Shown in pieces: positions 4,001-43,031 of a stretch of 64,000 nt of DNA. How positions within the stretch are numbered: position 1 is the stretch's first letter; every line of letters begins with the position of its first letter. Source of the DNA: a virus. Lineage: Duplodnaviria; Heunggongvirae; Uroviricota; Caudoviricetes. The stretch is taken from IMG/VR virus record IMGVR_UViG_2778261505_000002; one strand, 5' to 3'. Below the pieces are notes generated by a model, which searched no databases, was not told the origin of the DNA, and worked only from the letters and a program-made list of their open reading frames with translations. The translations under genes and the position numbers were made by a program.

Positions 4001-5820
4001 CAATAAAGGCTGCAAGAGATGAAGCGGCGGCTCTTATTGCTAAGGAAAGCGAGGCTCGTGTTGAAGGTGATGCTGCAAACGCTAAACAACTGGAAGTGTT
4101 GCAGTCAACGGTAGAGGAAAGCTCCGCTGCCGTTGAAGAAATGAAAAAGACGGTTGCAGAGGTCGATCGTGCCAGTGCAGAACTGACTACGAACATTGAG
4201 GCTTTGGCCAAAACAAATATTGACCTGGCTCTTCGTCAAGATGAAGACCAGCACAAGCAGATGGTCAATAACGCGAAGATCGCAACAACACAGAAAACCT
4301 TTGCTGATGATATGTCTGCAATGGCCACGAAGGTTGAGGAAATTCGCGTAGAAATTGGCGAAGATATTAAGGCCAGTATTCTGGAAGAGTCCACCGCTCG
4401 TGCCGATGGCGATGAAGCGTTGGCAAAGCGTGTCACTCAGCTGCAATCTAAGTTTGAAGGAGATATCAGCGCGGCGATTAGTACAGAGCAGGAGGCTCGT
4501 ACATCTGCCGATGAAGCTCTGACGACACAAATCACTCAGCTTGAGTCGAAAGTAAGCAACGATATCGTCGCAGCTATTAAGGAAGAGCAAGAAGCCCGAG
4601 CAACGGAAGATTCGGCTCTGGCAAGCCAGATCACCCAACTTCAGGCAAAGGTTGATGATGATATTTCTGCTGCAATACGCAGTGAGCAGGAGGCCCGAGC
4701 AAGCGGGGACTCTGCGTTAGCCAAACAAATAAACCAGCTTCAGTCAAAGGTTGACGGTGATATATCCGCTGCCATCACTCAGGAGCAGGAGGCCAGAGCA
4801 AGTGCTGACCAGGCGCTCTCACGAGAAATTAACAGCCTGCGAGCACAAACCGGAACTGATATTGCCGCAGCGGTTGCTGTAGAGACAAAAGCAAGGACTG
4901 ATGCCGATAGTGCATTGTCTACCCAGATTACGTCTCTTACAGCAAAAGCTAATGATCTCAAGGCGTCTCTTGCCAGAGAAACAACGGCTCGTGCAGATGG
5001 TGATACCGCTTTAACAAAAGAGGTTTCAAGTTTAAAAGCACAGACAGCGAAAGATATTAGTGCGGCCGTTGCAGTTGAAACGCAGGCTCGAACTGATGCT
5101 GACTCGGCGTTGTCGTCTCAGATCACCAAGCTGACCTCTCAATACAAAGAGGATATTAAAGCGGCTGTAGCAACCGAAACGAAAACGCGTACAGAGCAAG
5201 ATGCTGCATTGGCGACTCAAATCACAAACTTAGAGTCTCAAACGGCAGCCAACATTTCCGCGGCGGTCACAACTGAAACGAAAGCGAGAACGCAGGCAGA
5301 TAATGCTCTGAGTGGGCGAATCGATACTCTGAAAGCAGAGGTGAATGGAAATACCGCGACAATTCAACAGCAGGCAACAGCTATTGCTGATACCAACAAA
5401 AAAGTGTCAACCGCGTGGACGTTGAAAATGGAGACTTCAACGAGCGGAGGGCAGAAGTATGTTGCCGGTATTGCGCTTGGTATTGACACCACTGGGCTAT
5501 CTCAGTTTTTGGTTCAGGCGGACAGGTTTGGTTTGGTCAACTCTGTTAACGGGAAGATCACAACGCCATTTGTTATCGAAAACAGTATCGCCTATATGAA
5601 TGGAGCGTATATCAAGGATGGCACAATCACCAATGCAAAAGTAGGCGATCTGCAATCTACCAATTTTGTTAGCGGTAGATCTGGATGGCGGTTCGGCAAA
5701 AATGGAACGCTTGAGATCAACGGTAATAGCGGCGGCAATGGGCGATTGGTTATAAATGGTCAGCGGATTGACGTTTATGACGATAACAACGTCTTACGAG
5801 TAAGAATTGGCCGTCTGTGA
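1090..5820 (+). CDS. Tail tip / host specificity protein, lambda gpJ-like (central tail fibre), with a coiled-coil tandem-repeat domain
   Basis: 1576 aa; N-terminus resembles lambda J; FN3-like middle section; about ten tandem ~33-aa repeats (EQEARxxxDxALxxQIxxLxSKVxxDIxAAI) between ~4380 and 5340. Confidence 0.8.
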   Translation: MDMEQFKKKKLPLLIAGAGGKKSKSSSRTPVEADDTVNSRAMAAILDLLGEGVIGGLVNGAKSIFIDDLPILNEDGSSNFSGITWDFRDGSQDQTPMAGFDFVETPKSVNIQLKKTHDVTVSIDNDEADRVRVIMKFPSLRSVDKSSGDTNGTTVKYKFQIANADATFSDVVAEGEKSVDITLTAKKTGVYYRSYELKLPKPGRAYKVRVIRLTDDNSSQYLYNDTWVDSIGEIVDTPMNYPNSALVGLKVNSEQFGSTMPSRSYLVRGIKIRVPSNYNEYTNTYVGVWDGTFKLLSSSNPAWILYDLLTNTRYGLGQFVSESMIDLGQLYQIGRYCDEEVDDGFGGKEKRFAINTQITSRQDAYRLIQDIAGAFRGMVFWAGGMVNIMQDSPSDPVMMFTNSNVKDGLFTYKGSARKDRPSVALVTYNNKEDGYKQNIEYVEDQDAMRRYGERKTEVVAFGCTSRGQAHRVGLWLLYTARMESDVITFTAGLDASFLMPGETVLIQNKYRAGKRNSGRIVEFTKNSITLDAPVSLAKSGSFIRILNQEGKIVERDVLETGENITKVTFSKALSSAETPVLNGVWTITEPDLEPMRVRIVNIAQGETSGSFDITAVENNPSKYEAIDNGATLIPQNTTVLDPTYSKPSNLQITEGTYLSSPGNLSVKLTATWEGKSPEYWISWRRSDENNVSNWQSARVTEEQYEIVNVAENGRYDFQLYAVSFNGKKTEIISTVYQVLGTMTPPDAPTSLTAVGDYRNVILNWVNPDSVDLDHINVYASQTNNLDTAKLIAESASTTFTHAGLGDSETWYYWVRASNKRGMLSPPNSNLGTEATTRDVLSFLTGKITSSELGQALLEDINSKVSQEAVDELNEHINQSVESLEGAVNDVKEDIAELDKQFSDNLAGFEIKFNERSDALENAQTELKGEVSATINKVNEAFEKIDATDAAIVEIENTVSEHDKALANTVEAIKAARDEAAALIAKESEARVEGDAANAKQLEVLQSTVEESSAAVEEMKKTVAEVDRASAELTTNIEALAKTNIDLALRQDEDQHKQMVNNAKIATTQKTFADDMSAMATKVEEIRVEIGEDIKASILEESTARADGDEALAKRVTQLQSKFEGDISAAISTEQEARTSADEALTTQITQLESKVSNDIVAAIKEEQEARATEDSALASQITQLQAKVDDDISAAIRSEQEARASGDSALAKQINQLQSKVDGDISAAITQEQEARASADQALSREINSLRAQTGTDIAAAVAVETKARTDADSALSTQITSLTAKANDLKASLARETTARADGDTALTKEVSSLKAQTAKDISAAVAVETQARTDADSALSSQITKLTSQYKEDIKAAVATETKTRTEQDAALATQITNLESQTAANISAAVTTETKARTQADNALSGRIDTLKAEVNGNTATIQQQATAIADTNKKVSTAWTLKMETSTSGGQKYVAGIALGIDTTGLSQFLVQADRFGLVNSVNGKITTPFVIENSIAYMNGAYIKDGTITNAKVGDLQSTNFVSGRSGWRFGKNGTLEINGNSGGNGRLVINGQRIDVYDDNNVLRVRIGRL

Positions 5821-5913
5821 TGGTGGAAAAAAAATTTTATATCGGTAAAAATAGGTAAGTATCTACTTAATGGCGGGCAAGGATAGCCCGCCAAATCAAG
5901 GAGCATATTCAAC

Positions 5914-8900
5914 ATGTGGTACAGGGAAGGTACTATCACATTTACACAGGGCAGCAATACTCTGGTTGGGGCAGGGACAGCCTGGAACGTAACAGCTAAT
6001 GGTGTGTTGCCGGGGATGATCGTCATTGGCCCCGACAATAAGCTGTATGAGATCAAGCGCGTAACCAGTGATACGAACATTGTTCTCTCAGAACCTTATA
6101 CCGGCGAAACTCAGTCTGAAGTTCCGTGCCGAATCATTACGACCTATGAAGGCGACTTAACACAGTTTAGCGCGCGCTTTACTGCGCTAATGTCGCGTAT
6201 ATCGGCTGATTCCAAGTCCATACGCAGTTGGTTGACTGCGCTGGATGAGGTGACAATCGAGCGTGAAGACGGTACAGAAGTGACCGTTAAGCCGCTAATG
6301 CAGATCGTCAACGAGCACAACGAAAACGTTGAGTGGTATAAAAATAACACTGACGCGATTGATGCTGCTGGCGACAAAGCTCGTGAGGCGGCGGCCAGTG
6401 CTGCCGCAGCAGCAAAAAGCGCCAATGCCGCTGGAGAAAAAGCCTCTCAAGCGTCTCAAAGTGCATCCGCTGCGGCATCCTCACAAAGTGCCGCAAGTGC
6501 GAGTGCAACTGCTGCGAAAAAATCTGAAACGAATGCTGCAGCGTCACAAAAATCTGCAGCCACTTCTGCATCCACCGCGACCACGAAGGCGTCAGAAGCT
6601 GCCACCTCAGCCCGGGATGCGGCGGCCTCAAAAGAGGCAGCGAAATCATCAGAAACGAGCGCAGCCTCGAGCGCCAGTAATGCCGCTTCCTCGGCAACGG
6701 CGGCAGGAAATTCCGCGAAGGCGGCAAAAACGTCCGAGACGAACGCCAGGTCTTCTGAAACGGCAGCGGGACAGAGCGCCTCGGCTGCGGCAGGCTCAAA
6801 AACAGCGGCTGCGTCGTCTGCCAGTGCCGCGTCAACAAGTGCCGGGCAGGCCTCAGCCAGTGCCACCGCCGCCGGAAAATCGGCAGAAAGTGCCGCATCG
6901 TCTGCTTCAACTGCCACAACGAAGGCTGGCCAAGCCACTGAACAGGCCAGCGCAGCAGCGAGGTCTGCTTCCGCAGCGAAGACATCCGAAACGAACGCGA
7001 AAGCGTCGGAAACCCGTGCAGAATCCTCAAAAACGGCAGCCGCATCGTCCGCCAGTTCGGCGGCGTCATCGGCATCATCGGCGTCTGCTTCAAAAGATGA
7101 GGCGACCAGACAGGCGTCAGCAGCGAAGGGCAGCGCCACGACGGCATCCACGAAAGCAACAGAGGCGGCAGGCAGTGCGACGGCAGCATCTCAGAGCAAA
7201 ACTGCTGCTGAATCCGCTGCGACCCGTGCGGAAGCTGCTGCTGATCGTGCTGAAGAGATTGCCGGTGCAGTTGCGATGGAAGACGCAAGCCTTACAACTA
7301 AAGGTGTTGTGAAACTTAGCAGTGCTGTCGACAGCACCAGTGAATCGCTGGCCGCAACGCCAAAAGCAGTTAAAGCAGCCAATGACAATGCGAATAGCAG
7401 GGTGCCATCTAACCGAAAAGTTAACGGTAAAGCACTGACTGCGGATATCAAATTAACGCCGAAAGATATTGGTACTTTAAATTCAGTAACGATGTCTTTC
7501 TCTGGCGGGGCAGGGTGGTTCAAACTGGCTACGGTTACCATGCCACAAGCGAGTTCCATCGTTTACATCGCATTGATTGGTGGCGCTGGTTACAACGTCG
7601 GCTCCCCACATCAGGCAGGCATTTCAGAACTGGTTCTACGAGCAGGCAATGGAAACCCCAAAGGGATTACAGGTGCTTTGTGGAAGCGTACAGCTGTCGG
7701 ATTAACGAATTTCGCCTGGATCAACACATCCGGCGATACATATGATATTTACGTTGAGATTGGCAATTATGCGACTCGTGTAAATATCCATTGGGATTGT
7801 ACTGCAAATGCGACAGTTTCTATTTATACCTCGCCAACATATTCAGCGAGTAAGCCTTCCAGCGTTACCGATGGTGTTGTTTATACGATGTATAGCACAC
7901 ATCAGAAACCGACGCCGTTAGATATTGGAGCACTGCCAACAACCGGAGGAACAGTTTCAGGTCCGTTGTCTGTTACAGGTGGATTAACTGGTTCATTGAA
8001 TGGTAATGCAAGTACAGCCACGAAATTGCAGACGGCAAGATCTATCGGTGGAGTTGTTTTCGACGGTTCTGCAAATATTAACCTTCCAGGTGTAAACACT
8101 ACGGGTAATCAGAACACCACTGGTAATGCTGCAACTGCTACAAAACTTCAGACGGCAAGAACTATCGGCGGCGTGAGCTTTGATGGTACTGCGAATATTA
8201 ATTTGCCAGGTGTTAATACGACTGGTAATCAGAACACAACGGGCAACGCGGCTACTGCTACGAAGTTGCAGACTGCGCGTACTATCAATGGGGTGTCGTT
8301 TGACGGCTCGGCAAATATTGCCTTGTCGCCAGCAAATATAGGTTGCCCGGCATCTCCTACTGGTTGGTTAACTACAGGAAGTAATGGAGGAGCAATAACG
8401 ACAGCCCAGTTAGTTACTTTGTTGCAAAATAACGGGGCATTCAGTACGAAAGCATGGATCGCTCGTTGTGCATGGGCGTATGCGAATAGTGCATCCATAC
8501 CAGACAGTGAAACTGGTTGTGGCATTATTCCACTGGCGGGTGCTGTGATAGAAGTATTCAGCAATAATACCAACAATTACACCATTCGAATAACAACGGC
8601 CACTACGACAAATGTCTCTGGTGCACTCACTAATGCGGAGTTTATCTATGTGTCTAATGGCTCAAGTTATTCACCTGGATGGCGCAGAGCGTATAACACT
8701 AGAAACAAACCAACAGCTTCTGATGTAGGAGCATTACCGCTTTCAGGTGGCACATTATCTGGAGGGTTAACGTCTTCTGGTGAGATCGTTTCAAAATATG
8801 CAAATGGTTTCCGCATTGCTTACGGTAACTTTGGGTTCTTTATCCGTAATGATGGGGCGAACACATATTTCCTGCTAACAGCATCAGGAGACACATTAGG

Positions 8901-11298: not shown

Positions 11299-11634
11299 AT
11301 GGAGGAAAACATGTCGAACGAGATGGCGGGCGTTACAACAGAGCAAGTTGAGCGTATTGCCGCGATCGTTGCTCGGGAGGTTGTTGGCAAATTAGGTAAA
11401 GAGCTACGTGAAGAAATTGGCCAGGAGGTCAATGATCAGCTGAAAACCTACTTTGGTGATATGACCCCGGCGCAACATAGTATTCAACACTCCAATCTGG
11501 ACAAACTCCTTAACCGGTTAGATTCCATCTCAAGTGGGTTCTTTGGCGGCATTGTTTCTAAAATAACGTCGTTCATTATTACCGCACTGCTTTTGGGGTT
11601 AGCCGCGTATGGCGTAAAAAGTGGACTGCAATAA
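11299..11634 (+). CDS. Hypothetical membrane protein; candidate holin
   Basis: 111 aa, soluble N-terminal part and one C-terminal TM helix; first gene of the putative lysis cassette. Confidence 0.35.
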   Translation: MEENMSNEMAGVTTEQVERIAAIVAREVVGKLGKELREEIGQEVNDQLKTYFGDMTPAQHSIQHSNLDKLLNRLDSISSGFFGGIVSKITSFIITALLLGLAAYGVKSGLQ

Positions 11635-11647
11635 CAGGAGATCAAGG

Positions 11648-12340
11648 ATGAAGACTCCGAGAGGCATTCGTAATAATAACCCCGGTAATCTTGATAAAGG
11701 ATCACCGTGGCAAGGTCTGGTTGCGAATCCAGACGAACCGCGCTTTTGCACGTTTAAAGACCCTGTTTGGGGGATTCGTGCGCTGGCGGTGACTCTAATT
11801 ACCTACCACGACAAACGTCGCGCAAAAGACGGCTCAAGTATCGATACCATTCGTGAAGTTATTGAACGTTGGGCACCGCCGAATGAAAACAATACTGACG
11901 CCTACATTAATGAGGTGTCTAAAGCCGTTGGTGTAACCGCAGACATGATCATCGATCTGCATGATTACGACATCCTTCGACCTTTGGTTGAGGCAATCAT
12001 TCGCCACGAGAATGGCCGAGGCCCGCTAAAAACGCTGAACACCTGGTATGCGGCAGAAGTTATTGAGGAAGGTCTGCGTCGAGCTGGCGTTGTTAAGCCG
12101 GTGAAAACCGTGAAGGCTGTTCCTGTAACTAAAGAAACCGCAGGCGCAACTGTTACAGCAGGTATTGGTCTGGCGCAGCTGGCCGATGTTATGCCGCAGG
12201 TTTCCGCTGCTATGGATAAAGCACAAGGTCATATCTCTAGCGGGGATACAGTACGCATCATCTTCGGTATTGCCACTATTGTTGTGGCAGGATTCATTGC
12301 CTGGTCGCAGGTAAGAAAACACCAGAAAGGGATGGTCTAA
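11648..12340 (+). CDS. Hypothetical protein with C-terminal TM anchor; candidate endolysin by position only
   Basis: Start chosen at the ATG preceded by AGGAG (the track ORF begins 27 nt earlier at 11621); conserved-looking N-terminal RNNNPGN motif; lies between the holin candidate and Rz/Rz1. Confidence 0.4.
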   Translation: MKTPRGIRNNNPGNLDKGSPWQGLVANPDEPRFCTFKDPVWGIRALAVTLITYHDKRRAKDGSSIDTIREVIERWAPPNENNTDAYINEVSKAVGVTADMIIDLHDYDILRPLVEAIIRHENGRGPLKTLNTWYAAEVIEEGLRRAGVVKPVKTVKAVPVTKETAGATVTAGIGLAQLADVMPQVSAAMDKAQGHISSGDTVRIIFGIATIVVAGFIAWSQVRKHQKGMV

Positions 12341-12341
12341 T

Positions 12342-12593
12342 ATGCTAGGCAGCCTGATGACAAAGCTAAAAGTTGCTTTGATTACGCTGGCTGCCGTTCT
12401 TTTCGTTCTTGTCGGCGCTTACACGATGGGCGGGAATGCGGCGCGACGAGCAATGGAAGAGAAGGCAAAACAGGAAGACAGAAAACGACTTCAAAGCACA
12501 GTGGAAGTGGTGAATGAGACGAGCAATAAAATACGTCAGAAAGATGCTTCTGCCGTTCATCGTGAGTTGTATGATAAGTGGGTGCGTCATTAA
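12342..12593 (+). CDS. i-spanin (Rz-like)
   Basis: N-terminal TM helix followed by a charged coiled-coil region; a +1-frame lipoprotein ORF overlaps its 3' end. Confidence 0.7.
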   Translation: MLGSLMTKLKVALITLAAVLFVLVGAYTMGGNAARRAMEEKAKQEDRKRLQSTVEVVNETSNKIRQKDASAVHRELYDKWVRH

Positions 12594-25274: not shown

Positions 25275-26378
25275 ATGAAAAATAGCTTTGACAGAGCACG
25301 CGCTGCGGAGAACACCTCAAAAGAGGCGATTGAGTATCTCGAAAGAGCATCTCAAATGCAGGCCGTTATGATCTCGCAGGTTAGCAATGATATGAGATTC
25401 TCGGACGCATTCATGTTATTTACTCGCTTATCTCTGCTGATAACCAGACGTCGGCCAGAGATCGCTGTTCATTGTATTTTGATACATGTTTTGCCGCACA
25501 TTGCCGATGTAAAAGTAAGTGACATTAATAGGTTCATGGTGAACCAACTGGTCAACCCACTAATACTGGATGGCAAAATTGTTATGGGCCGCCGCGTTTT
25601 CTCTCTGATGAAGCAGTTCCTTAGCTGGTGCGCCTTCCAGGGGATGATAGACGTGTCACCGTTAAACGATATGTCACTTAACAAAGTTGCCGGTGGCGCA
25701 AAGCCCACACCTCGCGAGCGGAAGCTGACCGACGCAGAGGTATGGGTGTTCTGGAATATATGGGACTACTTCAATGTGTGCGCTGGTACAAAATGGGCGG
25801 CCAGGCTGTGTCTTGTATCCGCAAGACGACCTGACGAAGTACTGCGGGCTAAAAAAAGTGAGTTCAATCTTAAGCGTGGGGTTTGGAATCAAGGCAAGAG
25901 GAACAAATCTGCCCGTGAGCATTCGCTGCCTTTAAGCACATTAATGCGCACATGTATTGAAGAGTTGTTCGAATACGGTAAAGGCAGCCAGTGGCTCGTG
26001 CCTTCGAATAAAAAAATCGGGAAAGACCTTCCTATGTCTAAAGTGGCAATAGCCCAGGCATTACGTCGTATTCTGGAACGACCAGAACTGATGGAGCTTG
26101 AGCCATTTACACCCCGAGACTTGCGCCGTACTGCGCGTAGTTACTTCCCAGCATTAGGCATAAGCCAGGAGGTATCACGTAAAATCATGAACCACAGTCT
26201 TGAGGGGATAGATCGAGTCTACGACCGGCACGATTATATGGACGAGATGCGAGACGCCTTAGAAAGTTTCTCGACGTACATCGCATCAATCGTAGAGCAA
26301 CCGGATTTAGACGAAATTGACCACAAATTCAAGGGAGATCGTCTATCAACAGAGCTTATTCGTGTAAATTTTTCATAG
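25275..26378 (+). CDS. Tyrosine site-specific recombinase (integrase or resolvase)
   Basis: C-terminal catalytic-domain pattern (…RRPDEV…, FTPRDLRRTARSY, MNHSLEGIDRVYDRHDY) consistent with the R-H-R-Y signature. Confidence 0.7.
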   Translation: MKNSFDRARAAENTSKEAIEYLERASQMQAVMISQVSNDMRFSDAFMLFTRLSLLITRRRPEIAVHCILIHVLPHIADVKVSDINRFMVNQLVNPLILDGKIVMGRRVFSLMKQFLSWCAFQGMIDVSPLNDMSLNKVAGGAKPTPRERKLTDAEVWVFWNIWDYFNVCAGTKWAARLCLVSARRPDEVLRAKKSEFNLKRGVWNQGKRNKSAREHSLPLSTLMRTCIEELFEYGKGSQWLVPSNKKIGKDLPMSKVAIAQALRRILERPELMELEPFTPRDLRRTARSYFPALGISQEVSRKIMNHSLEGIDRVYDRHDYMDEMRDALESFSTYIASIVEQPDLDEIDHKFKGDRLSTELIRVNFS

Positions 26379-26759
26379 AGACTTTATGGCCTCAACAACC
26401 TTTTGTGATGCGCCTTTCTCTTTACCGAATCGCTCGTTATATGCAGCAAGAACCTGTTTTTCGTCCTCGTTAAGAGGAGCGGTGCCTTCTTTGTATAAAA
26501 ATGCTGCGAGTTCAGGTTGGCGTTCTTCCAGCACCATCATCATAAGACGACTTGGCTCAATACCCAGCGCCAGCGCCAACGGACGAACCTTATCGATAGG
26601 CAAAGGAATTTTGCCACTTTTAATTAAAGAAAGGTTGTTGGCATTTTTATAACCAATAAGTCTGGCTATTTGGGCCTGACTCATAGGTGAGGATTCAATC
26701 AGCCCTGCGATAAAAGCAGCATAGCGACTTTCTATAAATTCAATCTTGTTGTCAGACAT
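26373..26759 (-). CDS. XRE-family helix-turn-helix transcriptional regulator
   Basis: HTH segment (MSQAQIARLIGYKNANNLSLIKSGK); start set at internal ATG (track ORF extends to 26789); divergent from the downstream AT-rich region. Confidence 0.65.
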   Translation of the reverse strand: MSDNKIEFIESRYAAFIAGLIESSPMSQAQIARLIGYKNANNLSLIKSGKIPLPIDKVRPLALALGIEPSRLMMMVLEERQPELAAFLYKEGTAPLNEDEKQVLAAYNERFGKEKGASQKVVEAIKSL

Positions 26760-36223: not shown

Positions 36224-37168
36224 GTGAATTATCTCTTCGTAGATGGCAATAGCCTGGGTTATTACCACCAACAATCTGACAAATTGCACAACGGCGAAAT
36301 GGAAGTACAGGCTGCTTTCGGCTTTGTTAAGAACGTCCGTCGTTATGCCTCCATCCTTCATGCCCGACCTATGATTCTTTGGGATGGATTTAGTGACAAG
36401 CGTCGCGACTTTTACCCGGACTACAAAGCAAATCGCGACGACGATCCTGATATGAAAAAGATGAAGGAAGGCTTTGCTATCCAGAAGCCATACATCCTCA
36501 AAATGATGACCGCGCTTGGAGTTACCCAACTCATTGCAAAAGATGCAGAAGCGGATGATCTGGCCGGGCTGCTGGTAGCCAGCATTGCACCGCAGCCAAT
36601 CGTTGAACACATCTATCTGTTAACAGGCGATAGCGACTGGCTTCAGTTAGTTCGCGAAAACGTAAGCTGGGTAAGCCTGCGCGAAGACGCCAAAAACAAG
36701 CAGGTTAATTTTGAGCAATTTGCGGAACTGACAGGATTCGCTACTCCTCGCGCATTTTTGGAAGCAAAAGCATTACAAGGCGATAACTCGGACAACATTA
36801 GCGGTGTTGGTGGCATTGGTGCTGGCGGTGCGAAAGAGCTGCTGCATGAATGGGGAAGTGTCGCAACGATGGTACGCGGCATCAACGACGGCTCAATCGT
36901 GGTTAATAAAGGGCGTCATAAGACCGCCTTCAACAAACTAGCGAAGAATGCCTTCAACGAGAAAACAGGCTGTCGAATGCTCGAAGCGTTCAAGAGAAAC
37001 ATCACGCTAATGAACCTGATTGAGACGAAGTTTCCGCCTACCGAAATCGAAACAATCAAAGGCAATCGTGACGTGAAAGCATTCGAGCAACTGTGCTACG
37101 AGCTGAATTTCCGTTCGTTCCTTGAAGACCTTGAAGTGTTTGTTCTTCCATTCGAAAGGTATTGCTAA
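36224..37168 (+). CDS. 5'-3' exonuclease / flap endonuclease (FEN, RNase H-like)
   Basis: LFVDGNSL, AKDAEADD and LLTGDSDWLQL acidic motifs; start set at GTG after GGAAGGAA RBS because the track ATG at 36173 lies inside the upstream terminator. Confidence 0.75.
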   Translation: MNYLFVDGNSLGYYHQQSDKLHNGEMEVQAAFGFVKNVRRYASILHARPMILWDGFSDKRRDFYPDYKANRDDDPDMKKMKEGFAIQKPYILKMMTALGVTQLIAKDAEADDLAGLLVASIAPQPIVEHIYLLTGDSDWLQLVRENVSWVSLREDAKNKQVNFEQFAELTGFATPRAFLEAKALQGDNSDNISGVGGIGAGGAKELLHEWGSVATMVRGINDGSIVVNKGRHKTAFNKLAKNAFNEKTGCRMLEAFKRNITLMNLIETKFPPTEIETIKGNRDVKAFEQLCYELNFRSFLEDLEVFVLPFERYC

Positions 37169-37434
37169 TGCTTAAATCGATTATCAATGGCGCTACAACC
37201 ACCCCTGCCCAACTGGCAAAAGAGATTGTCTTTTATCACGGTGAGTACGCTGTCATCGCACTGCCGTCAATTCTAGGCGCTGCCGGAATGAAAGCGACAG
37301 ATCGCGAGTTTGGATTAGTCAGCGAGCAGGTCGTAAAAATCCTCGCTCGTGTATCCAGACTCCTTAACCACGATGCGATTGTATTCGATGAATCCGCCGC
37401 TTTAAAACGAATCAACGAAACAAAAGGAGCCTGA
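37162..37434 (+). CDS. Hypothetical protein
   Basis: 90-aa ORF overlapping the FEN stop; AAAGGAG RBS precedes the following gene. Confidence 0.4.
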   Translation: MLMLKSIINGATTTPAQLAKEIVFYHGEYAVIALPSILGAAGMKATDREFGLVSEQVVKILARVSRLLNHDAIVFDESAALKRINETKGA

Positions 37435-37436
37435 TC

Positions 37437-38510
37437 ATGGCAAAAGGAAAATCCGCACTGGCACTTGCTCTGAAAAAGAAAATCGGTAGCAACGACGAAA
37501 TTCAGAAAGTAACTCATTGGATTGATACAGGCTTTCCACCGTTAAACAAAGCTATTTCTGGTCGTTACGATGGCGGCTTCCCATGTGGTCGTATCGTCGA
37601 AGTATTCGGTCCTCCAAGTGCAGGGAAAACGTTCCTTGCAACAGCAGCGATGATCTCCGCTCAAAAACAAGATGGTCTGGCGGTATTCCTCGATCATGAA
37701 AACAGTTTTGACGTTGGCCTGGCTGTCGCCAATGGCCTGAACGCAGATGAGGATGACGGTCAGTGGGTATACAAGCAGCCTGACACCTTCGAAGACTCTG
37801 TAGAGTTGATCGGCACAATACTTAAATTGGTACGTGATGAAGAGCTTATCCCTGAATCAGCACCTATCTGTATCGTGGCTGACTCACTTGCGTCTATGGT
37901 TCCGAACTCCAAAGCCGAGAAGTTCGAAAAGATGGCTGAAGGCACTGCCAAAGACAAAGATCAGCTAAACATGAACGACAATACGGCACTGGCTCGTGCG
38001 ACAAGTGCGAACTTCCCTACTCTGGCTTTGTGGGCACGCAAATACAACGCCTGCATCATCTTCTTGAATCAGGTTCGCACAAAAATCGGTGTAATGTTTG
38101 GCGACCCTACTACGTCGCCAGGTGGAGATTCACCGAAGTTCTACGCTTCTGTACGTATCCGTCTTGGTGCATCGGTGATGAAGGATGGTAAAGAGAAGAT
38201 CGGCCAGGACGTAGGCGCAGAATGCATCAAAAACAAAGTTGCACCACCGTATGGCAAATGCACCTGGAAATTCTACTTCGATCCTACTCGTGGCCTCGAC
38301 GTTATCGAATCGCTCGTCGAGTACATGCTGGAAGAAGGATACCTGCCAAAGAACGCCAGCGGGCGAGTTGAAATTGGTGACAAGAAATACACCAAATCAC
38401 AGATCGTCGAGATGTATCGGGAGAAGCCACTGGCTGAAATCATTGCGGCTTTGCAGGCAATCGACGACCGAAGAGCAAAAGACAACCCCACCGAGTCAGT
38501 AGAAGAGTAA
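37437..38510 (+). CDS. RecA/UvsX-like recombinase
   Basis: Walker A (FGPPSAGKT), Walker B-like IIFLNQVR, and RecA-signature GGDSPKFYASVRIRL. Confidence 0.8.
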   Translation: MAKGKSALALALKKKIGSNDEIQKVTHWIDTGFPPLNKAISGRYDGGFPCGRIVEVFGPPSAGKTFLATAAMISAQKQDGLAVFLDHENSFDVGLAVANGLNADEDDGQWVYKQPDTFEDSVELIGTILKLVRDEELIPESAPICIVADSLASMVPNSKAEKFEKMAEGTAKDKDQLNMNDNTALARATSANFPTLALWARKYNACIIFLNQVRTKIGVMFGDPTTSPGGDSPKFYASVRIRLGASVMKDGKEKIGQDVGAECIKNKVAPPYGKCTWKFYFDPTRGLDVIESLVEYMLEEGYLPKNASGRVEIGDKKYTKSQIVEMYREKPLAEIIAALQAIDDRRAKDNPTESVEE

Positions 38511-38514
38511 ACAC

Positions 38515-38541
38515 AAGGCGTCCACAGGACGCCTTTTTTAT
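38515..38541 (+). terminator. Rho-independent terminator (GGCGTC hairpin family)
   Basis: AAGGCGTCC-ACAG-GACGCCTT followed by TTTTATC. Confidence 0.85.
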
Positions 38542-38602
38542 CTCTTGAAAATATATAAGTACTTACTTATTATTTTCGCATAACAACCACATAGGAAAAC
38601 AC

Positions 38603-38803
38603 ATGATCAAAATCTATCTATTGGCAGTAGCCACAGGCGTTTCAGTGGCTCTCATCTACGGTTTACTGGTTCCGTCGCTGATTTCTACCAAGAGTGATTT
38701 AGCCGTCATGTTTGGAGTTATCGTTGGTTTTGGTGCTCCTGTAATCGGTCTTATTGCTGGTCGTAAGTTTATCAACTCATTAATCAAAGCAAAGGGGAAA
38801 TAA
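38603..38803 (+). CDS. Small membrane protein
   Basis: 66 aa, two predicted TM helices; AGGAAAACACATG start context. Confidence 0.5.
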   Translation: MIKIYLLAVATGVSVALIYGLLVPSLISTKSDLAVMFGVIVGFGAPVIGLIAGRKFINSLIKAKGK

Positions 38804-38806
38804 GTA

Positions 38807-39637
38807 ATGAAGAAAGGTTTACTTGCAGTTGCTCTGGCGGCTATTTGCACAATGGGTCTTACTGGCTGTGATCGCGTGGAGCCTGGATACGTTGGCATCA
38901 AAGTAAACAAATTAGGTGAAGACAAAGGGATCGGTGAAGTGGTTGGCGTTGGGCGCCAATGGACAGGTCTTAACACCGAACTTTACGTATTCCCGACCTT
39001 CAAACAAATGAAGACCTACGACGAACCGTTCACATTCCAGATGAGTGACGGTACTGCTATTGGTCACAAAATTGGCGTTGCGTATCTGGTTAATCGTGAC
39101 AAGGTAACGACGGTGTTCCAGACCTATCGCAAAGGCGTAGACGATATCACCGAATCAGATCTGCGTCAGAAAATTGCCGACTCTCTAAACCGTTTGGCCA
39201 GCCGTATGACCACTGACTCATTTATCGACGGTGGTAAGGCGCAATTGCTGGACAACGCACTGAAAGATATTCAGAAAGAGATGTCTCCGGTTGGTATTGA
39301 GGTACTGAGCCTGTCATGGGTTGGAAAGCCTGATTACCCAAAAACCGTCATTGAATCTATCAACGCCAAAGTAACGGCTAACCAGCGTACTCTGCAACGT
39401 CAGCAGGAAGTTGAACAACGTAAAGCTGAGGCGAATATGCTACGTGAACAGGCTAATGGTGAAGCTGATGCTATCCGTGCTCGCGCGCAAGCAGAAGCCG
39501 ACGCCATTCGTCTGCGCGGTGAAGCTCTGCGTCAAAACCCGAACGTTATGGAGCTGGAAGCCATCAATAAATGGAATGGCCAGTTACCGCAGTACATGAC
39601 TCAAGGGGCTAACACTCCTTTCATTACAGTGAAATAA
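38807..39637 (+). CDS. SPFH/band-7 domain lipoprotein
   Basis: Lipobox (GLTG|C) then a prohibitin/HflK-like core and a C-terminal coiled coil (EADAIRARAQAEADAIRLRGEA). Confidence 0.6.
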   Translation: MKKGLLAVALAAICTMGLTGCDRVEPGYVGIKVNKLGEDKGIGEVVGVGRQWTGLNTELYVFPTFKQMKTYDEPFTFQMSDGTAIGHKIGVAYLVNRDKVTTVFQTYRKGVDDITESDLRQKIADSLNRLASRMTTDSFIDGGKAQLLDNALKDIQKEMSPVGIEVLSLSWVGKPDYPKTVIESINAKVTANQRTLQRQQEVEQRKAEANMLREQANGEADAIRARAQAEADAIRLRGEALRQNPNVMELEAINKWNGQLPQYMTQGANTPFITVK

Positions 39638-39653: not shown

Positions 39654-39682
39654 CAGGCGTCCAGTTGGACGCCGTTTTATTC
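39654..39682 (+). terminator. Rho-independent terminator (GGCGTC hairpin family)
   Basis: CAGGCGTCC-AGTT-GGACGCC followed by GTTTTATT. Confidence 0.85.
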
Positions 39683-39732: not shown

Positions 39733-40557
39733 ATGCCCAACCACATTACAAACGAAATCCGAGTCATAGGTGGTACAAATAAACAACGCTTAGATTTCAT
39801 ACGTGCCATAACTAACAAAAAAGGTCTAATTGACTTTAATACCATTTGCAGACGTCCGAAAAGTATAGAAATGGAAGAAAACAATCATATCAGGCGCATG
39901 GCCTCTGCAATGGCGGGCGAAACAGTTTACGACCACATGTTCGGTGAATTAAAAACTCCAGAACAGGTCGAATTAGCTATGCGTGAATCAGGAATGACAC
40001 GCAAGGAAATTCGCAAAATCAAAGAGCAGGCTCTTATGCGGCTTGAGAATTATCGTCGCTATGGCTATTACTCATGGTTTGACTGGTCGCGAGCTAATTG
40101 GGGAACAAAATGGAATGCCTACAACATCGAAATGCCCGTAAAACGTATCCCTACACGTATTAAGTACGGCCATAATTTCCGCCATACACACGTTCGAGCA
40201 TATGCAAAACGAATCTATAAAAAACGTCTTGCAAGACATGCCGCAACTGGTGGTGAGTTGGTGATTCGCTTTGAAACAGCATGGTCTATGCCAAAACCAA
40301 TTTATCAGGCGATGGCTAGAAAGTTCCCGCACCTTGAGTTTGTAATACGTTATGCAGACGAAGACTTCGGCAATAACTGCGGATTCATTTTACTTCGCAA
40401 CGGCAAATGGGAATATGACTACATTGCACCGGCGAATAACGAACAATCGTCAGAAGAAAAAATCAAATGGTGCAAGTTCGCCTTTGAGTTATGTTGTCCT
40501 GGTATCACTCCACAAGAATACGGTCTAAATGAAAAATACGAATACGCCGGATATTAA
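39733..40557 (+). CDS. Hypothetical protein (Trp-rich SWFDWSRANWGTKWNA motif)
   Basis: 274-aa ORF preceded by the AAAACAATTTGTT palindrome; family not recognised. Confidence 0.45.
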   Translation: MPNHITNEIRVIGGTNKQRLDFIRAITNKKGLIDFNTICRRPKSIEMEENNHIRRMASAMAGETVYDHMFGELKTPEQVELAMRESGMTRKEIRKIKEQALMRLENYRRYGYYSWFDWSRANWGTKWNAYNIEMPVKRIPTRIKYGHNFRHTHVRAYAKRIYKKRLARHAATGGELVIRFETAWSMPKPIYQAMARKFPHLEFVIRYADEDFGNNCGFILLRNGKWEYDYIAPANNEQSSEEKIKWCKFAFELCCPGITPQEYGLNEKYEYAGY

Positions 40558-40589
40558 TGCTTTACGCACGAAGCATAGAGGTTAAGAAG

Positions 40590-41330
40590 ATGAAAAGAAA
40601 AATTGAAGAACCAAAAACGACCCTTAATAAACATGGGGAAAAAATTCAAACACACCCAGCGTTCGGTCTTGTGAAAACAAGCCGTGTTAGCACGACTGGC
40701 ATTCGTCTATTTGATTCAGAACTGGAACATAGAGACTATATTGAAATAGGCGTTTACGAGGCTGAACTATCCTTGGATAATGAACGAACCCGGCCACAAA
40801 GGAGTAGCAATAGACGGCCTTTAGTTGAAATTAGACTTAGCCAGGCACAATGGGCTGCTATGGTTAGCAGTTTTGGTGTGGGCGAAGGTGTGCCATGCAC
40901 TATTTCATATAAAACCATTGGCGACTCAATTAGAGTTCATGATATTGCCGAGCAAAAAAGTATTCGACAAAAATTCAACGATCAAATAAAGGCAGCTACG
41001 AATAGTGAGATTGATCGACTTAATCAGCAAGTATCAGAGCTAGGTGAGCTTGTGAAAAAAGGAAGAGCTGGAAAACGTGACCTTGAAGAACTATATAGAA
41101 AACTTGCATCTGCTGTAGCTAACCTTCCTGAAAATCTGTGCTTTGCTACCGAATTAATGCAGGAGCAAATGGATGAAATTGTCTCATCTGGAAAGGCGGA
41201 GATTGAGGCGTATGTTGCAGGCACTGTTATGCGTAAAGGGTTAGCAGCATTAGGCACAGAATCATGCATTAACGATGCTCCTACTGTCTCTATCACCAAA
41301 ATGGAAAGCGGTAAAGAATTACTGCCATAA
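40590..41330 (+). CDS. Hypothetical protein with central coiled coil
   Basis: Start set at ATG after GAGG RBS (track ORF begins at 40557); no motif recognised. Confidence 0.4.
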   Translation: MKRKIEEPKTTLNKHGEKIQTHPAFGLVKTSRVSTTGIRLFDSELEHRDYIEIGVYEAELSLDNERTRPQRSSNRRPLVEIRLSQAQWAAMVSSFGVGEGVPCTISYKTIGDSIRVHDIAEQKSIRQKFNDQIKAATNSEIDRLNQQVSELGELVKKGRAGKRDLEELYRKLASAVANLPENLCFATELMQEQMDEIVSSGKAEIEAYVAGTVMRKGLAALGTESCINDAPTVSITKMESGKELLP

Positions 41331-41398
41331 ATGTATCTGAGGTACTGACAATGCTTTTAATTCAACCTGGGTTCGGTTTAAAGATAAAAAAAGGACAT

Positions 41399-41740
41399 AT
41401 GTTCGGTTTCAAAGAATCGAAACGAAAAATTCTGTCCATTAGATTGCCGTTTATCACCATTCATTGGTTAAACAGAGAGTCAACCGATTATTGGTATAAA
41501 TGTGCTCTGGCCGCATTTAACGACCCTGACTGGTTTATAGAAAACCACCATGCTGTTCGTCAGGCAAAGAGAAAAGCTAATACGACATACATGAAGGCGT
41601 ATCGGAAGGCATGGAAAGAACACCGCGATCGATACCAAAAAGACATGGAGAAACTTGAATTGGAAAATATGGATCTAAGAAGGAAGCTCGGTGAAGCACG
41701 GCGAGATATTGAAGCATATAAACGTCTTGTATCGGAGTGA
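41399..41740 (+). CDS. Hypothetical basic protein with C-terminal coiled coil
   Basis: Start at ATG after AAGGA (track ORF begins at 41351). Confidence 0.35.
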   Translation: MFGFKESKRKILSIRLPFITIHWLNRESTDYWYKCALAAFNDPDWFIENHHAVRQAKRKANTTYMKAYRKAWKEHRDRYQKDMEKLELENMDLRRKLGEARRDIEAYKRLVSE

Positions 41741-41873
41741 ATATGACTTTACATTGTTTTTTCAAAGGGCATTGCTTTTCACTATACAGAAACAGAAATA
41801 ATAATGGGGCATTCTACATATGTAGTAAATGTGGGAGGACAAAATATCTTCCAGATGTCAAATTTGAAGGTCC

Positions 41874-42320
41874 TTGAATGTTTGCATTAAATGGGCAATA
41901 CAGATGATCACAACAGACTTTTCTAAATTAAGTGATTTTGAAATTAACAGACGAGTATGTGAGGCTTTAGATATGGAGGAGTATTTCTTCATACCTGATG
42001 ACGAAGCAGATTTCGATTCGGAGATCCCCACTGACGAAAGAGGTCCTGTTTGGCAGACGTCAAAAAGGGATATTAATGGCTTCCGTGCTTCAAACGGAAA
42101 TTGCTTCAATCCTTGCAACAACCCGGCGGACGCAAAGCCCATTATCGTAGAGAACAGAATTGGCATTATTCCTGCGCCAGAAAATGGATTATGGAAGGCA
42201 GCGCATAGAAAGATTGGTAACGATAATACTCCATACCATATGACTCAAAATGTAAATCCACTCCGCGCCGCCATGATTGTCTTTCTGATGATGAAAGAAA
42301 GTGAGAGTTGTACCGATTAA
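41874..42320 (+). CDS. Hypothetical protein
   Basis: 148-aa ORF; no motif recognised. Confidence 0.35.
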   Translation: MNVCIKWAIQMITTDFSKLSDFEINRRVCEALDMEEYFFIPDDEADFDSEIPTDERGPVWQTSKRDINGFRASNGNCFNPCNNPADAKPIIVENRIGIIPAPENGLWKAAHRKIGNDNTPYHMTQNVNPLRAAMIVFLMMKESESCTD

Positions 42321-42619
42321 TGAATATATACGATTTTTTTAAAAAACCTAACACATGTGTCAGAAAAGGGTATAAACCGTCAGTCATCGATTGCTGGTCG
42401 CTATCAGCAAATAATCTCAACAATGTATTCAAAATGCATTGGGAGTTTCTTTGTGAAGCGCGCGGCGTTCTCGACATGACAGTCAGAGAAGCAATTATCT
42501 GGATTCTTTGGTTTCCGGTAAGAACATTTATGACTCTGACGTACCCATTTACCTTCTGGATTTGGGGAACCGTCCTTTATTTCATATTAAAAGGAGAAGT
42601 AAAACATGGCAGCAATTAA
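42308..42619 (+). CDS. Hypothetical membrane protein
   Basis: 103 aa; Trp/Phe-rich predicted TM segments. Confidence 0.35.
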   Translation: MYRLMNIYDFFKKPNTCVRKGYKPSVIDCWSLSANNLNNVFKMHWEFLCEARGVLDMTVREAIIWILWFPVRTFMTLTYPFTFWIWGTVLYFILKGEVKHGSN

Positions 42620-43031
42620 GAAACTCTACGATGCCGCAAACGCGGCTCTGGATGTTATTGATGATGAAGTATCAAAAGGCTTTCCTGAACCTGATTGGGC
42701 GCATCAGCTACGAAACGCTATCGCCGAAATGAATCCACCAGATCCGACCACCGACGAGACAGACTGGCAGCGATTTATCCGTATGTACGCTCAGGAAATA
42801 GGTCCAACGCCAACGGCAGAGCAAGCAATGCTGCTGAAATACTTCAAAGAGGCGGGAGAGGATTTACCAATTGATGACTCAGCATATTGGTTCCACTGCG
42901 CATGGCGTAAGTATGACGTGATATTCACACAAGGCATGGGAAGCAAAGATATGGTTGTGTGGCATCTACTCCATATAGACACAGCCGTTGACAGAGTTAT
43001 TGAACAGTTTTTCCCTAACCAAGAAGATTGA
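42606..43031 (+). CDS. Hypothetical protein
   Basis: 141-aa ORF with GGAG RBS. Confidence 0.4.
   Translation: MAAIKKLYDAANAALDVIDDEVSKGFPEPDWAHQLRNAIAEMNPPDPTTDETDWQRFIRMYAQEIGPTPTAEQAMLLKYFKEAGEDLPIDDSAYWFHCAWRKYDVIFTQGMGSKDMVVWHLLHIDTAVDRVIEQFFPNQED

Follow-up and report, generated by a model that had tools for sequence, protein, structure and literature searches.

A conserved gene pair encoding an SPFH lipoprotein and a small hairpin membrane protein in an SSU5-like phage-plasmid and other phages

Introduction

The cages formed by SPFH (band-7) proteins are an active structural topic, with structures of HflK/C, prohibitin, erlin, stomatin and flotillin from 2022-2026, and their clients and purpose are mostly debated. 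Among the Escherichia coli SPFH proteins, HflK/C face the periplasm and QmcA, which has a transmembrane (TM) anchor, faces the cytoplasm. HflK and HflC (PDB 7vhq, 7wi3) are encoded by two adjacent paralogous genes, form a heteromer and are anchored by an N-terminal TM helix. In QmcA-YbbJ (PDB 8z5g) and archaeal stomatin-STOPP the gene for the SPFH protein and that for a small dedicated membrane protein are adjacent, co-oriented and co-transcribed. Here we describe a similar arrangement in a tailed-phage genome: in a stretch of 64,000 nucleotides (nt) of viral DNA (IMG/VR record IMGVR_UViG_2778261505_000002; hereafter the window), positions 38603-39637 encode a membrane protein of 66 amino acids (aa) and, directly downstream, an SPFH lipoprotein of 276 aa.

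Both proteins are clear members of PHROG families, the SPFH protein of phrog_200 and its partner of phrog_1130, which are sequence clusters without assigned function. The searchable literature, which misses many subscription journals, yielded neither a functional study of a phage SPFH-partner pair nor a description of the consistent phrog_200/phrog_1130 pairing. A 2026 paper calls the reason for an SPFH gene in phages unclear (PMC13239085), and another offers speculation only, on a role of the gene in lysogeny (PMC10269572). We found experimental work on a single SPFH protein of phage origin, PM0222 of Pasteurella multocida, a prophage-encoded HflK/C-like SPFH protein that was detected in outer-membrane vesicles and activated TLR1/2, and the deletion of which attenuated virulence (PMC9872710). 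This protein was studied only as a host-immune agonist and virulence factor and could not be linked to the subfamily described here.

Results

Conservation of the gene pair

Both open reading frames (ORFs) were found exactly where the initial annotation had placed them, on the plus strand and in a common reading frame (Table 1). Only 3 nt separate the stop codon of the partner gene from the ATG of the SPFH gene, which suggests translational coupling. Based on profile searches and gene neighbourhoods we discovered that the two genes form a real conserved pair, and that their association is far beyond chance. An independent set of 128 loci was compiled, in part from bacterial genomes representing one species each and in part from viral contigs for which distant family members served as seeds, and grouped into 51 clusters at 80% identity. 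The partner was located upstream on the same strand in 37 of the 41 informative clusters of this SPFH subfamily, abutting in 35 of them (gap of -19 to +58 nt) and within 1 kb in two, whereas it was detected beside SPFH genes of other subfamilies in none of 10 clusters. True partner matches scored 14-90 bits, and the second-best background matches reached at most 11.7 bits (95th percentile 6.5). The start and stop codons of the pair typically overlap by 4-17 nt in this set.

Among close SPFH homologues (77-100% identity), a two-TM ORF of 62-78 aa abuts or overlaps the SPFH start in 80 of 80 IMG/VR loci, including those of phiP27, where the two-TM ORF is unannotated, and of the P2-like phage P88. 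The same arrangement, together with the loop motif of the partner that is described below, was found in divergent phages with an SPFH identity of 37-71%, namely KpCHEMY26, the N4-like phage AlfredRasser (Schitoviridae), Vibrio CKB-S1 and Pseudomonas vB_Pae_U2, and also in Desulfovibrio ProddE (Autographiviridae), Stenotrophomonas Paxi and Phaeobacter MD18. The divergent phages that carry the partner are phages of gamma-, alpha- and delta-proteobacteria. On unrelated enterobacterial backbones (SSU5-like, P2-like P88, lambdoid phiP27 and N4-like) the SPFH proteins are 64-80% identical and the partners 21-32% identical, with the loop kept. This pattern fits strong purifying selection for a conserved host target, combined with a lipid-embedded subunit that is constrained at its contact point.

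A hidden Markov model (HMM) of the partner was built from eight phages and applied to all ORFs of loci held out from training and to all ORFs of the window. Exactly one ORF per matching locus was recovered, always beside the SPFH gene, and the window gave a single match. The E values were 1e-13 for P88, 2e-13 for an Stx-type phage, 9e-13 for phiP27, 3e-12 for pEa55 and 6e-8 for phiM6, with 4MG (1e-7) and FIfi106 (7e-3) at the weaker end. In the Vequintavirinae phages 4MG and pEa_SNUABM_55 and in Sinorhizobium phage phiM6, all of which passed the HMM test, the hairpin ORF with the motif is located at least one gene further upstream. The HMM matches were marginal for Burkholderia vB_SR1, for the LUZ24-like phage TL and for the Prevotella megaphage Lak-B5 (E=1.1); a hairpin ORF with the motif is present two genes upstream in TL and abuts the SPFH gene in Lak-B5.

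The pairing was also recovered from the side of the partner. From eight distant partner representatives, a gene of the SPFH lipoprotein family was found directly downstream, or in one case two genes away, in six of the seven informative contexts, and these SPFH genes were confirmed by an SPFH profile (E=1e-26 to 1e-127). An apparent exception in Shigella flexneri and E. coli chromosomes consists of an IS1 element (InsA and InsB ORFs; ~2220-2950 of the loci) between the prophage partner and the SPFH gene, which are ~770 nt apart. Additionally, in the 347-aa protein P0021 (8 member sequences) an Stx-type partner is fused in frame to the SPFH lipoprotein; its topology is self-consistent, as the hairpin would begin in the cytoplasm, the signal peptide would add a third TM segment and the SPFH domain would then lie in the periplasm.

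As a separate observation, a locus of GCA_004283235.1 carries (locus 2001-2255) a partner gene of the Stx-phage type, the C-terminal half of which is frameshifted or truncated; there is no SPFH gene in its vicinity, and it looks like a decayed remnant of the module.

The SPFH lipoprotein

The 276-aa protein matched the Pfam family Band_7 (PF01145) with E=2.6e-30 and 106.2 bits (cut-off 23.6) over residues 23-209, and phrog_200 ('lipoprotein') with E=3e-108; its Ala/Glu-rich segment gave a weak Flotillin-type Pfam match. Its N terminus, MKKGLLAVALAAICTMGLTG-C, reads as a basic MKK start followed by the lipobox LTG-C21, with Asp22 at position +2. The initial annotation had described an SPFH lipoprotein with an Ala/Glu-rich coiled coil, and the Band_7 match, the lipobox at C21 and a modelled Ala/Glu-rich helix of 65 residues support this. 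Pfam detected no protease or transposase domain, and the labels 'serine protease' and 'transposase', which are frequent in phage records, are therefore baseless.

A lipobox was present in 174 of 203 distinct N-termini of the family; the counts at position +2 were 82 for Asp, 63 for Ser, 15 for Tyr and 8 for Glu. Among the loci examined, Asp at +2 was seen mainly in enterobacterial phages. Asp at +2 is a Lol-avoidance signal that leads to inner-membrane retention in Enterobacterales. Because of the lipobox with Asp at +2, the SPFH protein of the window is predicted to be held at the inner membrane by a lipid anchor, without a TM helix, and to lie on the periplasmic side. The Cys predicted to be lipidated is only ~5 residues away from the first beta-strand, so that the membrane-proximal SPFH domain would have to rest right against the membrane, at the place where the partner's loop of four to nine residues emerges.

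AlphaFold modelled the protein (mean pLDDT 77) with a beta/alpha core (residues 20-176), a single helix (CC1, 179-243) and a short helix (245-255), from a shallow alignment of 35 mostly enterobacterial sequences of 63-99% identity. In a Foldseek comparison with PDB the model matched other SPFH proteins over their full length (240-300 aligned columns), with 14-19% identity and E values between 3e-14 and 1e-7. HflC ranked first (E=3e-14) and HflK second (2e-13); the further matches were prohibitin, erlin, stomatin, flotillin, vault and QmcA (1e-7), and all of these proteins form rings or cages. The sequence search against PDB returned only HflK (E=0.007). The layout of core, CC1, CC2 and C-terminal tail in the model is superimposable on solved SPFH proteins. 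As far as the model goes, the 276-aa protein is a genuine SPFH scaffold with a predicted complete wall-and-cap architecture.

The hairpin partner

The 66-aa protein has two hydrophobic stretches and was predicted by AlphaFold as a helical hairpin (helices 2-27 and 32-65; mean pLDDT 86). It matched phrog_1130 ('membrane protein') with E=9e-26 and no Pfam family at E≤0.01. In an alignment of 14 partner sequences P24, S28 and G38 were the only invariant positions, and the TM helices varied; 13 of these 14 diverse partners fall in phrog_1130. P24 and S28 are part of the loop motif P-x-[LM]-[ILVMF]-S, which defines the family; the loop motif was carried by 176 of 179 partners, and the divergent phages named above share the longer form P-x-[LM]-[ILVMF]-S-x-x-[DS]. 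Over the same 179 partners the C-terminal tail contained on average 4.2 K/R, and the loop 0.5 K/R and 1.2 D/E. By the positive-inside rule, this places both termini of the partner in the cytoplasm and the conserved loop in the periplasm.

With the 66-aa protein as query, tblastn found only 6 phage records, and the wider family was seen only by profile methods. A profile search of 1.84 billion cluster representatives returned 1,111 partner relatives at E≤1e-3; among the 150 best matches listed, almost all were 58-97 aa long and aligned end to end. All named database relatives are 'hypothetical' and without a Pfam domain.

Comparison with HflK/HflC and SPFH-NfeD operons

HflK and HflC are the best full-length structural match of the SPFH protein, with the same SPFH1/2-CC1-CC2-C-tail layout and the same, here predicted, periplasmic side. 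However, an orthologue of HflK/C was ruled out by the NCBIfam equivalogs, which gave 18.7 bits for HflK (TIGR01933; cut-off 159.4) and 30.2 bits for HflC (TIGR01932; cut-off 134.4). Instead of two paralogous genes, the locus has one SPFH gene, the product of which presumably forms a homo-oligomer, next to that of the 66-aa hairpin, and a lipid anchor is predicted in place of the N-terminal TM helix. The likeness to HflK/C proposed in the initial annotation holds for the fold, and does not extend to orthology, gene arrangement or predicted anchoring.

The alternative that had been named with it, a pair of the QmcA/YbbJ type, was rejected. Membership in the SPFH-NfeD families was ruled out because the partner lacks the NfeD/OB fold (PF01957), has no Pfam match and consists entirely of a hairpin of two helices. 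Additionally, the partner gene is located upstream here, and the SPFH protein is predicted to be a periplasmic lipoprotein.

Distribution

The SPFH protein was found in 413 phage records and in 658 plasmid records, 620 of which are non-mobilizable. The plasmid carriers include Yersinia pestis plasmids of the pMT1 type (94% identity) and plasmids of P1 size (78%). Among 5,426 complete E. coli genomes, 737 (13.6%) carried the protein, at 418 chromosomal and 414 plasmid places. The phages with the SPFH gene comprise Schitoviridae, Vequintavirinae, Ounavirinae, Bruynoghevirus, Autographiviridae, phiCbK-like phages, one crAss-like phage and Lak megaphages, of which all but the last two are generally regarded as strictly virulent groups. 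SPFH gene and partner occur together in N4-like Schitoviridae, Vequintavirinae, one Autographiviridae phage and Bruynoghevirus; the partner match was weaker in Ounavirinae and marginal in the Lak megaphage.

The pair was also found on chromosomes of Rhodanobacteraceae, with syntenic flanks in ~20 Dyella species and in a second type of locus in others; D. marensis has two copies. No phage genes were recognisable around the Dyella pair in the 6.8 kb inspected, and the flanking ORFs had no Pfam or PHROG match except for a hemerythrin downstream. The chromosomal lineage in Dyella is possibly domesticated.

Transcription unit and genomic context

The window is an SSU5-like E. coli phage-plasmid. 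Region 38603-39637 shares 99.7% identity with Escherichia phage CMS-2020a and 92-95% with phages Cyrano and PhiR41_1. The annotation of Cyrano contains tail genes, a lysis cassette, ParA/ParB, an integrase, a repressor and a large DNA-metabolism block, and most of these map onto the window. The pair has a recA/uvsX-like gene (37437-38510) on its upstream side and a group of unknown genes on its downstream side, and the similarity to related phage-plasmids stops just past the downstream terminator. With a terminator on either side, a candidate promoter and two genes, it is a moron-like bicistronic unit (Table 1). Terminator-like sites are enriched in this region (5 found, 1.6 expected in shuffled sequence). 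The two flanking terminators have an identical stem, GGCGTCC...GGACGCC, which could be a reused module or a trace of acquisition.

Table 1. Positions of the two genes and of their sequence features in the window.
Feature	Position	Strand	Basis or remark
Hairpin terminator, 9-bp stem with 6 G-C pairs, then TTTTTT	38515-38535	+	strong stop signal of the recA-like gene upstream; insulates the pair
Sigma-70-like promoter candidate, TTGAAA, 17 nt, TATTAT; 10/12 matches	38545-38573	+	consensus match only; 30 nt before the small ORF
Ribosome-binding site AGGA	38593-38596	+	sequence reading; 6 nt before the ATG of the small ORF
Partner gene, 66-aa helical-hairpin inner-membrane protein (phrog_1130, no Pfam; predicted N-in/C-in)	38603-38803	+	ORF, profiles, model
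Loop codons P24-S-L-I-S28-T-K-S-D32, periplasmic turn of the hairpin	38672-38698	+	alignment, motif count, model
Ribosome-binding site AGGGGA of the SPFH gene, within the end of the partner gene	38793-38798	+	sequence reading
SPFH/Band-7 lipoprotein gene, 276 aa, phrog_200 family	38807-39637	+	ORF, profiles, model
Signal peptide and lipobox LTG-C21, Asp22 at +2	38807-38872	+	sequence reading
Band_7/SPFH domain, residues 23-209	38873-39433	+	Pfam, alignment, model
CC1, a long helix rich in Ala and Glu (residues 179-243), which in SPFH cages forms the wall	39341-39535	+	weak Flot match, model, Foldseek
Conserved C-terminal tail K-W-N-G-x-L-P ... P-F-x-x-V-K; W256, G258, P261 invariant	39569-39634	+	alignment, model
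Hairpin terminator GGCGTCC-AGTT-GGACGCC (39656-39673), then GTTTTATT	39656-39681	+	closes the two-gene unit

In other phages the pair is usually located amid early or DNA-metabolism genes (DNA polymerase, exonuclease, dUTPase, ThyX, glutaredoxin). In the N4-like phage AlfredRasser a phrog_1510 gene (locus 901-1215), labelled 'superinfection exclusion', is directly upstream of the pair, and the SPFH gene of the Vi01-like phage PhiSH19 adjoins a gene annotated as 'superinfection exclusion' (table, PMC3220722); in both cases the label is an annotation only.

Some further differences between the window and Cyrano were observed. The recA/uvsX-like gene of the window encodes 357 aa and is preceded by a separate ORF of 90 aa (phrog_2207), the whole stretch being 37162-38510. 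The RecA annotated in Cyrano (locus 3772-6111) has 779 aa, and the protein of the window covers only 487-779 of the 779-aa phrog_9666 profile; the ~420 extra residues of the Cyrano-type gene could be an intein, a fusion or a mis-call. Homologues of the integrase (25275-26378) and the repressor (26373-26759) are present in the window. Cyrano RepA and HicA had no nucleotide match within the 64 kb; the phage-plasmid may use another replication initiator than Cyrano RepA, or the initiator falls outside the window. A region of ~2.9 kb (39733-42600), which adjoins the pair downstream, resembles a variable cargo spot: it is absent from Cyrano, where a homologue of window 42615-43031 follows the SPFH terminator after ~100 nt. 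Its ORFs are DUF1281_C/Api92-like (39733-40557; PF18406, E=6.6e-16), a coiled-coil ORF of phrog_6452 (40557-41330) and an ORF of phrog_1511 (41351-41740).

Discussion

The best-supported interpretation of these results is that the two genes encode a two-subunit module that works like other SPFH scaffolds with small partners, outside the HflK/C and SPFH-NfeD families. As a single conserved accessory module, they would produce a membrane scaffold at the host inner membrane, on its periplasmic face. More specifically, we lean, with modest confidence, towards an SPFH ring or cage that faces the periplasm, includes the hairpin protein as its dedicated subunit and acts on a conserved inner-membrane target.

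Judged from its sequence, the SPFH protein would be exported, lipidated at Cys21 and retained in the inner membrane through Asp+2; the lipidation and the retention would place the SPFH domain flat on the outer leaflet, in an HflK/C-like orientation. Its fold suggests that it would then self-assemble into a closed ring or dome, as do solved SPFH proteins of like layout. SPFH assemblies are membrane-attached rings or cages of 16-44 subunits, and one of ~22 subunits can be extrapolated from the 65-residue CC1 helix with the published regression of subunit number on CC1 length (y = 0.1782x + 10.22; PMC12624060). The 66-aa hairpin, genetically linked to the SPFH protein, would be its dedicated integral-membrane subunit and probably in physical contact with it. 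The P-x-L-I-S loop, the only conserved feature of the hairpin, would be exposed on the periplasmic side of the membrane, exactly at the level expected for the membrane-proximal SPFH domain. The hairpin would supply the TM component that is absent from the lipid-anchored SPFH protein, and may stand in for NfeD or for the TM helices of HflK/C. In the last and weakest step, the assembly might fence off a patch of the inner membrane and act on a conserved component of the host envelope during infection or carriage. This would be a moron function of use to both virulent and temperate phages and not a lysogeny switch, and by analogy FtsH would be the leading single candidate client.

However, several points weigh against this interpretation. 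Oligomerisation, localisation and partner contact are all inferred. The C-terminal 30 residues of the SPFH protein were poorly modelled (pLDDT <50) and the tail, which is expected to form a cap or inter-subunit contacts, is disordered in the monomer. The +2 rule applies only to Enterobacterales and many members have Ser, Tyr or Glu at this position, so that localisation elsewhere is uncertain; the Pasteurella prophage protein PM0222, which could not be linked to this family, was found in outer-membrane vesicles (PMC9872710). Four of the 41 clusters had no detectable partner, and the partner HMM gave no match in the loci of phiCbK and Bacillus phage Atlee; in such cases the SPFH protein may act alone, or with a partner too diverged to detect. 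The upstream position is occupied in phiCbK by a three-TM ORF of 116 aa (locus 1155-1505) and in Atlee by a one-TM ORF of 44 aa (locus 1327-1461), where the SPFH protein itself has a TM anchor and no lipobox. These ORFs hint that the membrane subunit has been replaced by non-homologous proteins. The fusion protein P0021 could be a frameshift artefact and gives weak support. Furthermore, promoter-like sites were not enriched around the pair (2 found, 2.7 expected in shuffles), and the promoter is a candidate only.

A broader version of the ring or cage interpretation, which we put forward tentatively and hold to be possible rather than probable, is that of an ancient two-subunit nanocage common to very different phages, in which a lipid-anchored SPFH ring and a hairpin TM subunit, assembled at the periplasmic side of the host inner membrane, enclose a specific conserved host machine (such as FtsH, a genome-entry complex or a secretion complex). 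It would span the N4-like, LUZ24-like and SSU5/P1/P2/lambda-like phages, and probably the FelixO1-like phages and Lak megaphages with their weak or marginal partner matches.

The narrower possibility that the module is an HflK/C mimic, which captures or modulates host FtsH and alters the turnover of lambda-type CII, LpxC or sigma-32, thereby biasing lysis-lysogeny or host physiology, is a specific version of the last step above, and we consider it rather unlikely. FtsH is present in all host phyla concerned. The two proteins of the FtsH-HflKC complex are the top two Foldseek matches, HflK is the only match at sequence level, and the predicted periplasmic orientation is like that of HflK/C; partnerships of SPFH proteins with AAA proteases (HflKC-FtsH, prohibitin-m-AAA) recur across life. 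However, prohibitin, erlin and stomatin come within ~1-4 logs of HflK/C in Foldseek, so that the fold does not discriminate between them, the identity is only 14-19%, and the scores are far under the HflK and HflC equivalog cut-offs. A single SPFH gene with a lipid anchor also differs from a K/C pair with a TM helix. Because the pair occurs in many phages of groups generally regarded as strictly virulent and on Dyella chromosomes, a role in the lysogeny decision cannot be its general function, and the effect on lysis-lysogeny suggested by the initial annotation is weakened.

Superinfection exclusion, in which the periplasm-facing assembly would occlude or sequester the inner-membrane entry site and so keep out the genomes of incoming phages, with expression from the unit's own promoter during carriage and in early lytic infection, also appears unlikely to us. 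Small inner-membrane proteins and lipoproteins are the usual effectors of exclusion: T4 Imm and Sp, T5 Llp, TP-J34 Ltp and HK97 gp15 are small accessory genes of these kinds, often morons, in virulent and temperate phages. The moron-like unit with its own promoter candidate and terminators, its frequency in prophages and phage-plasmids (see the E. coli genomes and plasmid records above), and the neighbouring 'exclusion' genes of AlfredRasser and PhiSH19 are in line with such a role, though these gene labels are annotations only. We found no sequence or fold relation to the named exclusion proteins, which are not SPFH scaffolds and are far less widely conserved, no PADLOC-DB 2.0 family for either protein at E≤0.1, and no experimental report in the searchable literature. 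Exclusion proteins are usually narrow in range and fast-evolving, whereas the SPFH protein is conserved from phages of Proteobacteria to Bacteroidota megaphages and at syntenic Dyella loci; conservation this deep speaks for a target that is itself conserved, in the host, and not for one that diversifies, in phages. A typical exclusion protein engaged in an arms race would fit the pattern of divergence between SPFH protein and partner less well.

A function in lysis timing, with the 66-aa protein as a class II holin or pinholin-like protein regulated by the SPFH lipoprotein, is very improbable. Its size, two TM helices, N-in/C-in topology and basic C-terminal tail do resemble class II holins, but this identity was rejected on context: the window already has a holin-endolysin-Rz cassette (11311-12593) 27 kb from the pair, the pair adjoined an endolysin in 0 of ~20 phage contexts inspected, and the Dyella locus is conserved without recognisable phage genes in the 6.8 kb inspected.

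Equally improbable is a lysogenic-conversion factor at the surface or released in outer-membrane vesicles, with the animal host as its target and TLR2 agonism or virulence as its effect: the findings on PM0222 and the presence of the pair on Yersinia pestis pMT1-type plasmids speak for it, but membership of PM0222 in this subfamily could not be established, Asp+2 predicts inner-membrane retention here, TLR2 stimulation is possible for any triacylated lipoprotein and need not be the selected function, and in the virulent phages of soil, water and plant bacteria that carry the module a role in an animal host would be senseless.

The ring or cage with a dedicated hairpin subunit, as favoured here, would add to the SPFH scaffolds a subfamily that is small, apparently homo-oligomeric and lipid-anchored, with a single partner of 60-90 aa. 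The hairpin partner, which looks obligate, gives a concrete complex to purify, and the assignment corrects the 'serine protease' and 'transposase' annotations. The subfamily is under selection in viruses, in which phenotypes such as burst size, lysis time, exclusion and lysogeny can readily be scored. If the broader nanocage version were true, viruses would have a general strategy, so far unrecognised, for dividing the host membrane into compartments, and the chromosomal copy in Dyella would be a domesticated one.

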